Virus record (IMG/VR): IMGVR_UViG_3300042260_000337
Strand: one strand, 5' to 3'
Origin: a virus
Taxonomy: Duplodnaviria; Caudoviricetes
DNA length: 64,000 nucleotides
In this document: in pieces, positions 52,715-60,937 of the stretch
Layout of the letters: each line of letters opens with the position of its first letter
Position numbering within the stretch: the first letter of the stretch is position 1
Made by a program: the position numbers and the translations under genes
Notes under the pieces: generated by a model
Database searches by the model: none
What the model was told of the DNA's origin: nothing
The model's input: only the letters and a program-made list of their open reading frames with translations

Positions 52715-53347
52715 TTAGTATAGACGATTTTCAACGTCAAAAGTGGTGATTGGACCTTTTTTGCCTTTCTCATAAACCCCAACACAAAGTCGGTTTGAGT
52801 AGAATGCTCCACAATCCAAGTTACAACGATTTATCGCAAAAATAGGACCATCGCCATGCGGGGTGTGACCATGGTTCAAATACATAGTCGGATGGTCAAA
52901 TGATGCATACCTACCACGTCTGCGCCAAATCATTGCGTGTTCAAGTTGCTGGCGTTCCTCAAGATGTTCATCCCAGTCGGCATGAACAAATATATTTTCA
53001 TCTTCGATGTGATAGATTTTTAGTTTGTTGATCCAACGCAATACTTCGTCGTCAATAAGTCCACCAAAACTATCCAGAACCTTTGGGTCATATAACTGAT
53101 TAGATGAGCACCAATCATACATCAACATATCTTCATGGTTGCCTTTGAGGCAAATGTATTCCCAACCAGCAGGAGGAACATCCATTAGATAGCGGACAAC
53201 ACCACCACTGTCTGGGCCACGGTCAACATAATCACCAAGGAAAATAATCTTTCCAGAATCTTGGCGTGAGAATATTTCCTTTAGTGCAAGATCAAGTAAA
53301 TCTTTTCTTCCATGTATATCTGGTATTGCGTAATATATTTCACTCAT
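52715..53347 (-). CDS. Metallophosphoesterase (lambda-type Ser/Thr phosphatase family)
   Basis: DIHG, GDYVDRG, GNHE, HGHTP, LDCGA. Confidence 0.9.
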   Translation of the reverse strand: MSEIYYAIPDIHGRKDLLDLALKEIFSRQDSGKIIFLGDYVDRGPDSGGVVRYLMDVPPAGWEYICLKGNHEDMLMYDWCSSNQLYDPKVLDSFGGLIDDEVLRWINKLKIYHIEDENIFVHADWDEHLEERQQLEHAMIWRRRGRYASFDHPTMYLNHGHTPHGDGPIFAINRCNLDCGAFYSNRLCVGVYEKGKKGPITTFDVENRLY

Positions 53348-53366: not shown

Positions 53367-53523
53367 TGGTCAAGTGGGAAGGACTTGAACCTTCAACTGA
53401 ATCGCAGCTTACACATACTCTTGCAAATGGGTTCGTCTCGAGCCTACTACCATCCACTCAATGTGCCTCACTGAAACTCCACGGCCCCTAATGCCGCTGC
53501 GTCTACCATTTCGCCACCACTCG
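53367..53523 (-). tRNA. tRNA-Leu(UAG)-like RNA with 86-nt variable arm (157 nt)
   Basis: Acceptor CGAGTGG/CCACTTG-A-CCA, Leu-type D-arm, GCGGC-ATTAGGG-GCCGT, T-arm GAAGG-TTCAAGT-CCTTC. Confidence 0.75.
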
Positions 53524-54206: not shown

Positions 54207-54377
54207 TCAATAGTCTTTTACTATTTTCAGAGAAGTTTCTGCTTGAATAGCATCTGCTTCATCAATCGCTTCTTGTTCGGATAAACCAGAAAGTTCATCC
54301 CAGTTATCAGACCCAACCACCTTCACCGAAAAGGTGTCATCTTCCGAGTCTTGATAGATTGAAATATAAGATTTCAT
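54207..54377 (-). CDS. Small acidic hypothetical protein
   Basis: Start set at MKSYISIY. Confidence 0.45.
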   Translation of the reverse strand: MKSYISIYQDSEDDTFSVKVVGSDNWDELSGLSEQEAIDEADAIQAETSLKIVKDY

Positions 54378-54802: not shown

Positions 54803-55444
54803 TTATCGTCTTACTACCCAACCACGAAAGTTATAGCTTTGCCAAACTTGGTCTGCATGACCAAGATATTTCAATTCTTCGGTGATTTCGGCATTAGTCA
54901 AACAAAACATCTTACCAATCAAACTGTAATCTTTATCCAAAATCTCAGTATCGGTGAAGTGTTTTCGTTTTTGGTTGTAGTGTTCTTTTGTCATGATAGA
55001 GTTTAGTTTGGCGGTATCACTGAATACCTTTTCGGCAAGTAGCAGTGTTGCACCGTTGTCTATCAACTCTTTCAACTTTTTTACAACTTGTCGGCGTTTG
55101 TATTTACCAAGAAACTGTAACGTGAACATAGATACGATCAGGTCAACGGATGTAAAGTTTTCCAATGCAGTGATTACATCTTGGTTGAGAAACACAAAAT
55201 TTTTATCAGACGCCATTTCAACTACGTCAATACCTACGTAGAAGCCCTCTGTTGAGGCAGAGAGGTCATTGAGAAACTTACCAGTGCTACATCCAATGTC
55301 AACGCACTGACCCTCTGGTGGCATGTATTCAAGGGCTATGGCTCTAAAAACGTCATATAGTCCTTGGTAGTTTGGAATAGAAAGGTTGATGTGATTGTCG
55401 AAATCTTCAACCTTCTGAAAGTCAAACTTGTTGTGCATCATCAA
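54803..55444 (-). CDS. cmoA: CmoA-like (carboxy-SAM synthase family) SAM-dependent protein
   Basis: F....FD.HI..SIPNY, DIGCSTG, FTLQFL, AEK, EI..K..L..M, VWQSYNF align with CmoA. Confidence 0.75.
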   Translation of the reverse strand: MMMHNKFDFQKVEDFDNHINLSIPNYQGLYDVFRAIALEYMPPEGQCVDIGCSTGKFLNDLSASTEGFYVGIDVVEMASDKNFVFLNQDVITALENFTSVDLIVSMFTLQFLGKYKRRQVVKKLKELIDNGATLLLAEKVFSDTAKLNSIMTKEHYNQKRKHFTDTEILDKDYSLIGKMFCLTNAEITEELKYLGHADQVWQSYNFRGWVVRR

Positions 55445-56802: not shown

Positions 56803-56879
56803 AGTGACACGAAAGGAGTTGAACCTTCATCTTTACTTTTTTGGAGTAACGCCTTATCCCTAGTTTTGGCCACGTGTAT
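56803..56879 (-). pseudogene. Degenerate tRNA-like sequence (Trp-like loop, no CCA)
   Basis: ACACG/CGTGT, GCC/GGC D-stem, TTACT-CCAAAAA-AGTAA, GAAGG-TTCAACT-CCTTT. Confidence 0.45.
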
Positions 56880-57737: not shown

Positions 57738-57923
57738 GCCAAAGGAAAACAGAGCCAAAAATATCATAACGAGCGATTATGTTTCTGTTACTGTCCGCAT
57801 TTTCCCGCCCAGCCTCTCCCTATACCACTTGTTTTCACAGCCCGATATAGTCTCTTTGCGTTCACGGTGCTTCGTTCCACTCTTTAAAGGATGTGCTGCC
57901 TCTAAGCCAACCTCCTACTGAAC
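57738..57923 (-). ncRNA. Structured RNA containing a copy of 23S rRNA H43/H44 (uL11-binding GTPase-associated centre)
   Basis: AGGAGGTTGGCTTAGAGGCAGCACATCCTTTAAAGA (57916-57881) vs conserved 23S AGGAGGTTGGCTTAGAAGCAGCCATCCTTTAAAGA; closed by GTTCA/TGAAC; further helices downstream. Confidence 0.75.
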
Positions 57924-58631
57924 TTTCAAGTAATCATATTCTCCGCTTAGTAACTTTTCAACAAACGCAGGAACCATTTCTGTTGCAACCCCATCCATAC
58001 TTTCTGTAAACATATACTTGTTTTCAGAAGGATGTAGATTGATTTCAACAGTATGTGCTCTTGCTTTTTTCTTTGCAGTCTTCACAAATCCAGCCGCAGG
58101 ATAAACTGTTCCAGATGTTCCAATCGCAACAAAGATGTCACAACGTCTAAGTGCATCATCAATCACTTCCATGTAGTATGGAAATTCACCGAACCAAACG
58201 ATGTTTGGGCGTAATGCAGGATGATAGCAATCATCACAAATATCGTGTGTTTGCATCACTTCATTTGCAGTTGTAATGTCTCCACATTTTCTACAAATAG
58301 ATTCGTGCAAACTTCCATGCATATGCAATACGTTTTTTGACCCTGCTTTTTCATGTAAGTCATCTACGTTTTGAGTAATCAAAGTAACATCAAAATTTGG
58401 ATTATGCTGTAATGCTGCTAAAGCATAATGCGCTTTGTTTGGTCTTGCATCGGCAACTTCTTTACGTCTATGGTTATAGAAGTCTAATACAAGTTTTGGA
58501 TTTTTATAGAAACCTTCTGGGGTTGCTACATCAGTTACATCATATTCATTCCAACGTCCATCGGTATCACGAAATGTTTTGATTCCGCTTTCTGCGGAAA
58601 TTCCCGCCCCTGTCAATATGCATATTTTCAT
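57915..58631 (-). CDS. cobB: Sir2/CobB-family NAD-dependent protein deacylase
   Basis: GAGISAESGIKTFRD, FY..RR, TQNVDDLHE.AG, HMHGSL, LRP.IVWFGE, GTSG.VYPAA, EIN. Confidence 0.93.
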   Translation of the reverse strand: MKICILTGAGISAESGIKTFRDTDGRWNEYDVTDVATPEGFYKNPKLVLDFYNHRRKEVADARPNKAHYALAALQHNPNFDVTLITQNVDDLHEKAGSKNVLHMHGSLHESICRKCGDITTANEVMQTHDICDDCYHPALRPNIVWFGEFPYYMEVIDDALRRCDIFVAIGTSGTVYPAAGFVKTAKKKARAHTVEINLHPSENKYMFTESMDGVATEMVPAFVEKLLSGEYDYLKVQ

Positions 58632-58745: not shown

Positions 58746-58818
58746 AAACTGTTACGGGATTCGAACCCGCCTCTCCCCCGACTCCGCAGGAGTATCCTTT
58801 CCTATAGACGAAACAGTC
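58746..58818 (-). pseudogene. tRNA-like sequence with aberrant anticodon arm, no CCA
   Basis: GACTGTT/AACAGTT, GCGGG-TTCGAAT-CCCGT; anticodon loop 6 or 8 nt. Confidence 0.5.
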
Positions 58819-60646: not shown

Positions 60647-60724
<78 letters not shown>

Positions 60725-60735
60725 ACATTTTAGTG

Positions 60736-60855
60736 TGGTGCGTATGGCTGGACTTGAACCAGCATGTCACCATGACTCATTCAACCACCGTTGAACTTAT
60801 GGATTTGAACCACCTTACGTCCGTCGACGTGCGTCTACCATTTCGCCACATACGC
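60736..60855 (-). ncRNA. tRNA-Leu-type body without anticodon loop, with a second T-loop hairpin (120 nt)
   Basis: GCGTATG/CATACGC-A-CCA, Leu D-arm, ACGTC-GACG-GACGT, GTGG-TTCAAAT-CCAT, TTCAAC/GTTGAA, GCTGG-TTCAAGT-CCAGC. Confidence 0.7.
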
Positions 60856-60862
60856 AAATATT

Positions 60863-60937
60863 TGGTTGCCCCTACTGGATTTGAACCAGTGACCTATCCC
60901 TTATCAGGGGATTGCTCTACCACTGAGCTAAGAGGCA
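60863..60937 (-). tRNA. tRNA-Ile(GAU)
   Basis: ATCCC-CTGATAA-GGGAT; CCA. Confidence 0.92.

Follow-up and report, generated by a model that had tools for sequence, protein, structure and literature searches.

A tRNA-Leu-like phage RNA with a second T-loop and a capped stub in place of the anticodon arm belongs to a conserved RNA family

The tRNA cluster of an uncultivated phage contains a gene with the acceptor stem, D-arm and T-arm of a leucine tRNA and four hairpins in the place of its anticodon arm, which raises the question whether this is a functional RNA, what it may do if it does not decode, or whether it is simply a spoiled tRNA gene. The element, 120 nt at positions 60736–60855 of the minus strand, was found in a 64,000-nt stretch of phage DNA (the whole of it is referred to below as the window), which belongs to a 202.7-kb IMG/VR virus record with an estimated completeness of 56%. 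ARAGORN called 40 tRNA genes in the whole record. The 17 called in the window are all encoded by the minus strand from 52.6 to 61.1 kb, and the 120-nt element lies inside this minus-strand run with a tRNA-Ile gene (60863–60937, minus strand) upstream across a 7-nt spacer and a tRNA-Met gene (60647–60724, minus strand) downstream across an 11-nt spacer. Since neither promoter-like nor terminator-like sites were seen on the minus strand from 61632 to 60013, the element would be transcribed together with the flanking tRNAs, if these are transcribed. Interleaved among the tRNA genes on the same strand are genes for a methyltransferase matching a PHROG family annotated as tRNA methyltransferase (54803–55444), a Sir2-family protein (57915–58631) and a NinI-like Ser/Thr phosphatase (52715–53347). 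Ordinary tRNA-Leu genes with the anticodons UAA, CAA and UAG are present in the same genome.

Several other features of the record concern tRNA as well. A homologue of the CCA-adding enzyme is encoded outside the window (G000:C1:46104–46499) as a 455-aa ORF matching the CCA-adding enzyme/poly(A) polymerase head domain (PF01743, 66 bits), a few kb away from the first tRNA genes of the record. Three unusual tRNAs called by ARAGORN, also outside the window (G000:C1:52384–52480, 54231–54320 and 121642–121718), include a 97-nt Tyr(AUA), a Ser(ACU) and an amber-reading tRNA with the anticodon CUA. Two tRNA-like genes within the cluster (56807–56877 and 58746–58818, both minus strand) scored above the Rfam tRNA threshold (37.4 and 31 bits) and were not called by ARAGORN; they have cloverleaf folds with odd anticodon arms, one with the loop CCAAAAA and the other with a 5-bp stem containing an internal mini-hairpin.

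The outer part of the 120-nt element proved to be that of a tRNA-Leu, as the initial annotation had described it. The 5′ acceptor strand GCGUAUG (60849–60855, minus strand) forms seven Watson-Crick pairs with CAUACGC at 60740–60746, all of which covary in the family presented below, and the 3′ strand is followed by the discriminator A73 and an encoded CCA (60736–60746 in total); RNase P would be expected to cut immediately before 60855. U8 and G9 precede a D-arm of the tRNA-Leu type (60831–60846, minus strand), with a 3-bp stem GCG/CGC and the loop AAAUGGUAGA containing A14, A15, G18 and G19, whose columns were invariant in alignments A1 and A3. The canonical T-arm GCUGG-UUCAAGU-CCAGC (60747–60763, minus strand) was recovered both by folding and by Rfam and corresponds to family helix 6, which is 100% paired, while U48 (60764) stands directly before it, as it does in 19 out of 19 family members. 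The D-arm had also been claimed to be shared with a giant leucine tRNA, and the 19-nt D-arm string UGGCGAAAUGGUAGACGCA indeed occurred in exactly two places of the window at a chance expectation of 0, its second copy (53498–53516, minus strand) being inside a 157-nt Leu-like gene. The latter gene (53367–53523, minus strand) thus has a D-arm identical to that of the 120-nt element; its anticodon arm is intact (loop AUUAGGG, anticodon UAG), its variable region of ~85 nt contains a D-loop-like AUGGUAG, and its folding z-score was only -0.15. The UAGGG loop motif of this gene is common to several unrelated oversized Leu-like RNAs from IMG/VR (L042, L077, L080 and L089).

The insert replacing the anticodon arm comprises 67 nt, and the minimum free energy fold gave exactly the four hairpins listed in the initial annotation. 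At the position of the anticodon arm there is a 5-bp stub, ACGUC-GACG-GACGU (hp1; 60817–60830, minus strand), with two-sided changes at all five pairs in the family. It is followed by the internal T-arm-like hairpin GUGG-UUCAAAU-CCAU (T′; 60799–60813, minus strand), which is helix 4 of the family with 98.7% pairing, and by the linker AAGU (60795–60798, minus strand), found as AAGU or GAAGU in most members carrying the next hairpin. The latter, UCAAC-GGUG-GUUGA (hp3; 60781–60794, minus strand), is a capped hairpin extendable to 7 bp and represents helix 5, again with two-sided changes at all five pairs. The last is a mini hairpin, GUCA-UGG-UGAC (hp4 or D′; 60766–60776, minus strand), small, covarying and presenting a D-loop-like UGG. 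The hp1 loop is GACG in the window copy and GGCA in most relatives, and the hp3 loop is GGUG in the window copy and GGCA, GGUA, GAAA or CGCAA in the relatives.

Of the Rfam families, only the generic tRNA model RF00005 matched the element (60739–60855, 40.3 bits at a gathering score of 29, model positions 1–71), with a 60-nt insertion in place of the 15-position anticodon arm. The acceptor, D-arm and T-arm of this model were all recognized, and at the site of its anticodon arm with 5 bp and a 7-nt loop the element has a 4-nt loop. No other Rfam family rose above noise over the 120 nt, no Y-RNA-like match was obtained at E up to 10, and Rfam 15 holds no separate family for such RNAs. ARAGORN with default settings made no call for the element. 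The folding z-score of the single sequence was only -1.67, so that the fold is unproven by thermodynamics alone.

A loose pattern applied to IMG/VR, fixing the Leu-type D-arm and a T-loop 58–88 nt apart and leaving the insert unconstrained, detected more than 117 loci, with 80 distinct sequences having an acceptor stem of 6 or 7 bp. The inserts of these oversized RNAs with a Leu-type shell (L004–L120 of IMG/VR; for example, L073, L113, L140, L160 and L022) are unrelated to that of the 120-nt element and highly variable; the acceptor AGUCAGG/CCUGACU and an ACAA end are found in many of them, and up to 7–8 copies are present per contig. In one further case (L095:12721–12841, minus strand) the RNA is tRNA-Leu-like with an ACCA end and a normal variable arm, and has ~30 extra nt within the would-be anticodon loop. 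An internal T-arm-like hairpin was present in 1 of the 80 oversized RNAs, compared to 0.06 in base shuffles. Blastn of the window insert against 118 loci from the loose pattern matched only the T-loops of other tRNAs, and nhmmer of the insert against the same loci produced no match.

A pattern requiring a second T-loop motif inside the insert detected 19 loci in IMG/VR and 23 in JGI metagenomes, and these gave 19 distinct two-T-loop relatives, most of them with the full set of hairpins and with at least 14 different acceptor stem sequences among them. Their parts follow a common order: the Leu-type shell, hp1 (4–6 bp, usually with a GGCA loop), a short linker, T′ with the loop UUCRAWU, AAGU, hp3 (3–6 bp), an A-rich stretch with UGG, which is often the loop of a small hairpin, then U48 with the T-arm and, finally, A73; a shorter subclass is without hp3. 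The closest relative by sequence was L048:2622–2743. Many of the relatives form part of tRNA arrays encoded by the same strand, and others are solitary. As the patterns used to collect the family prescribed the motifs of the D-arm, T′ and the T-loop, these motifs are to some extent conserved by construction; no demand was placed on the stems, the discriminator, U48, AAGU or UGG.

The helices of the family covary. In the alignment of the 19 distinct members, A2, which was fitted to the model and was used for the covariation counts, 95.0% of the pair cells were standard pairs, compared to 62.8% in column shuffles and 35–42% with slid partners, and 172 cells were changed on both sides, compared to 47.8 in shuffles and 17–35 with slid partners. 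None of the 500 shuffles reached the observed pairing or covariation values. The six modelled helices were 81–100% paired, each with at least one pair showing two-sided changes. Five of the helices (acceptor, D, hp1, T′ and T) were also predicted independently by RNAalifold from a plain MAFFT alignment. The leave-one-out model R2, built from 15 other members with the window sequence excluded, scored the window element at 98.8 bits (E 1e-26), compared to 52.5 for the 157-nt Leu-like gene and at most 38 for ordinary tRNAs. A lack of homologues sharing the architecture, which by the initial annotation would have spoken against the finding, was thus not observed: the 120-nt element belongs to a conserved RNA family that appears to be restricted to phages, and is neither a one-off nor a decayed gene.

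Other ways of finding relatives were less productive. An exact 31-mer and a strict D-arm/T-arm pattern had no match in IMG/VR, the search through the neighboring tRNA methyltransferase-like ORF gave no relatives, and megablast and blastn searches of 50,697 records of cultured phages with the window element and two members found no match to the family. The single pattern match in prokaryote genomes (one representative per species) was an ordinary tRNA-Leu beside another T-arm and was rejected. Pfam scans and all-against-all blastp of the ORFs flanking 23 member loci revealed no shared protein family.

Could such an RNA be charged? The LeuRS of E. coli and Aquifex recognizes tRNA-Leu by A73, the pairs U8-A14 and A15-U48, and G18G19 together with the T-loop. 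[quoted passage not shown] All of these elements, including an intact T-loop, are present in the 120-nt RNA, and A73, U48, A14, A15 and G18G19 were invariant in 19 of 19 members despite the variety of their acceptor stems, while the terminal CCA was encoded in 4 of the 19. A is the most frequent discriminator base in general as well, being present in 58 of the 80 RNAs of the wider oversized set (followed by G in 12, U in 6 and C in 4), and because it reaches no more than this fraction there, its strict conservation appears as a trait of the two-T-loop class. Charging by the host LeuRS is therefore plausible, since every known bacterial leucine identity element is kept. On the other hand, the Aquifex LeuRS is sensitive to how the variable arm is oriented and how long it can be (PMC2377443), so that the bulky variable domain could hinder charging of the 120-nt RNA. 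The earlier suggestion that the RNA could be leucylated hence gained from the retention of the identity elements throughout the family, with charging itself remaining at the level of plausibility: judged by its sequence, the RNA is probably leucylatable.

We prefer the reading that the gene is genuine and encodes a mimic of tRNA-Leu which does not decode, belongs to a conserved phage RNA family and acts by presenting an elbow as a decoy or docking platform; as a whole, we consider the chances of this reading to be about even. The RNA would be co-transcribed with the neighboring tRNAs and released by RNase P and 3′ trimming as a molecule of ~120 nt ending in ACCA. Its outer part would fold into the usual L-shaped core and could be charged by the host LeuRS, while the variable region represents a four-part domain made of a T-arm copy, AAGU, a capped hairpin and a mini D-arm presenting UGG. 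Such an RNA would not read codons; instead, it would present the surfaces of the tRNA-Leu upper body and of the elbow to a tRNA-binding factor of the host or the phage, serving as a decoy or a docking platform and not as an adaptor in translation. A role as decoy or docking platform is the most likely one, still speculative; donation of leucine in non-ribosomal transfer would be a related but less likely possibility, and the binding of EF-Tu suggested in the initial annotation is likewise speculative. The departure of the window copy from the usual GGCA loops of the family speaks against the mimic reading. Homologues of L/F-transferase, FemAB-type proteins and Acetyltransf_6 (PF13480), a Ro/TROVE protein (PF05731) and a LeuRS or other class Ia synthetase were all absent from the available ~56% of the genome, and neither there nor in the flanks of the members was a partner protein, a defense target or an aminoacyl-transferase found.

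The second-ranked explanation, somewhat unlikely in our estimation, sees the RNA as a neutral tRNA scaffold with a folded payload: the Leu shell would provide RNase P and CCA processing and stability, the insert would bind a protein or ligand from outside tRNA biology, and leucylation would be irrelevant. It is favored by the 80 distinct phage RNAs which combine the same Leu-type shell with unrelated inserts, often several per contig, and by the discriminator counts of this wider set, from which it follows that charging is not essential for all oversized RNAs with a Leu shell, because their discriminator is not always A. Furthermore, folded RNAs in general make use of T-loop modules as building blocks (PMC4810234). 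In contrast, the two-T-loop class combines A73 in all its 19 members with at least 14 acceptor sequences, and its insert copies parts of a tRNA, namely the T-arm and the D-loop-like UGG; these copies speak for a tRNA mimic rather than an unrelated aptamer. A conserved neighbor gene that would suggest a partner for the payload is also absent. The mimic, as decoy or docking platform, is ranked above the scaffold, and decay, decoding and splicing are each regarded as highly improbable.

The functionless product of a decaying tRNA-Leu gene, or of a tRNA gene disrupted by an inserted element, might be expected to look unusual in the way the window copy does, with its GACG and GGUG loops, its modest folding z-score and further aberrant tRNA-like genes in the same cluster. 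However, all seven helices of the window element are intact, compensatory changes keep the architecture in 19 diverged members, and the leave-one-out score of 98.8 bits was obtained with the window sequence left out of the model, which makes decay very improbable.

Decoding by the internal hairpin is even harder to uphold. If UUCAAAU were the true anticodon loop and the other hairpins extra arms, the RNA would be a tRNA-Leu(CAA), and the window loop U-U-CAA-A-U does fit U33, the anticodon CAA and A37. The corresponding loops of the relatives are, however, UUCGAUU, UUCGAGU or UUCGAAU, which would read CGA (Ser) in a Leu body, as the A/G change switches CAA to CGA; their stems have 3–4 bp closed by G-C instead of 5 bp, the loop and closing pair follow the T-arm consensus, and an ordinary tRNA-Leu(CAA) is already present in the genome. 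The assignment as an anticodon loop was therefore ruled out by the UUCGAWU loops and 3–4-bp stems of the relatives, and decoding is most improbable. As the genome already has Leu(UAA), Leu(CAA) and Leu(UAG) and the T′ loops of the relatives follow the T-loop consensus UUCRAWU with the usual purine variation at the fourth position, the extra hairpin is, to judge from these loops, a copy of the T-arm and not an anticodon arm, just as it had been described at the outset; the replacement of the anticodon arm by a stub, likewise part of that description, is borne out by hp1, which is conserved, covarying and capped by a 4-nt loop. Equally improbable is an intron-containing gene which loses part of its insert to give an ordinary tRNA-Leu: ARAGORN in intron mode does call a tRNA-Leu(AAG) with a 24-nt intron at position 32, but this call has a mismatch in the proposed anticodon stem and was rejected, since it ignores and cuts through helices that covary as intact hairpins across the family, and a group I intron would be far longer than the 67-nt insert, for which Rfam gave no intron match.

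Returning to the mimic, the insert may hold more than a copied T-arm. In 16 of the 19 family members UGG preceded the T stem by 4–18 nt, compared to 10 of the 80 control RNAs without T′. The motif is embedded in several members in AAUGGUAGAAU, which nearly repeats the D-loop, and in others, including the window copy, UGG forms the loop of a small hairpin. The simplest reading, drawn from this co-occurrence, is that the insert carries both partners of a tRNA elbow, a T-loop and a GG-bearing loop, which would dock on each other: the inner T′ loop would contact UGG as the T-loop contacts G18G19, producing a second "elbow" at the site of the class II variable arm. Because both partners are invariant, covariation cannot support this docking. 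A bolder version, a "twin-elbow" tRNA that accepts leucine, does not decode and uses a second T-loop/D-loop knob in its variable region to occupy or recruit a reader of tRNA shape, is offered tentatively and considered unlikely; its targets might be, speculatively, a tRNA-directed defense enzyme of the host or an elbow-binding site of the ribosome or RNase P. In the literature searched no description of a nested elbow was found.

The family indicates that phage tRNA clusters, which are usually read as codon-supply devices, also hold conserved non-decoding RNAs, which have kept the parts recognized by processing enzymes, LeuRS and elbow readers and have discarded the part that reads codons. The role of the non-decoding RNAs in T4-type tRNA regions is an old question, unanswered for T4 rnaC and rnaD, and the family, together with its covariance model and the mutational handles A73, G18G19, C56 of the inner loop and UGG, makes it testable at the bench. 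Should the inner T-arm and UGG indeed make up a second elbow, RNA mimicry would be built here in a new manner, and enzymes recognizing the tRNA shape could be studied with a new probe.

The two-T-loop Leu-like family appears in none of the catalogues or papers searched: a full-text literature search found no description of such a phage RNA, and the mention of tRNA-like candidates in a 2023 catalogue of phage structured RNAs is of a general kind only. Among the known RNAs from a similar setting are rnaC and rnaD of T4 (species 1 and 2), small stable RNAs from the end of the T4-type tRNA cluster whose role is open (PMC3014915, PMC9697503). Like the 120-nt element they are located in a phage tRNA cluster, and a T-arm-like hairpin forms the end of rnaC, but neither a Leu-type D-arm nor a two-T-loop insert was seen in their sequences. 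As candidate members of the family they were rejected: model R1 gave rnaC 15.8 bits, below the ordinary tRNAs of T4, and rnaD nothing above noise.

The tRNA-like domain of tmRNA, a mimic of tRNA that can be charged but does not decode, has an acceptor stem and a T-arm as the element does. In contrast to it, the element has a leucine-type body and its pair 3-70 is G-C, not the alanine-type G3-U70; moreover, the window contained no tmRNA by ARAGORN, no Rfam tmRNA match and no tag reading frame. YrlA is a non-decoding RNA, present in some phages, in which mimics of the T-arm and D-arm form an elbow. Unlike YrlA, the 120-nt RNA has free tRNA-like ends with ACCA and gave no Y-RNA-like Rfam match. 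Both tmRNA and the YrlA-type RNAs would thus serve as functional analogies only.

The other oversized anticodon-less phage RNAs of the Leu type have the same Leu shell of D-arm, T-arm and 7-bp acceptor and occur in phage contigs, often in tRNA arrays, but they differ in their unrelated variable inserts and in a discriminator that is not always A, while the insert of the two-T-loop class is conserved. With class II tRNA-Leu (RF00005) the element shares the 7-bp acceptor, U8, the D-arm (3 bp and the loop AAUGGUAGA), the pair A15-U48, the canonical T-arm, A73, CCA, the location in a tRNA operon and an expansion at the site of the long variable arm. In contrast to class II tRNA-Leu, the 120-nt element is without a 7-nt anticodon loop, its anticodon stem is reduced to a capped stub, and the variable region, a single hairpin there, is a four-part domain here. 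Class II tRNA-Leu is, nevertheless, the parent form of the 120-nt element.
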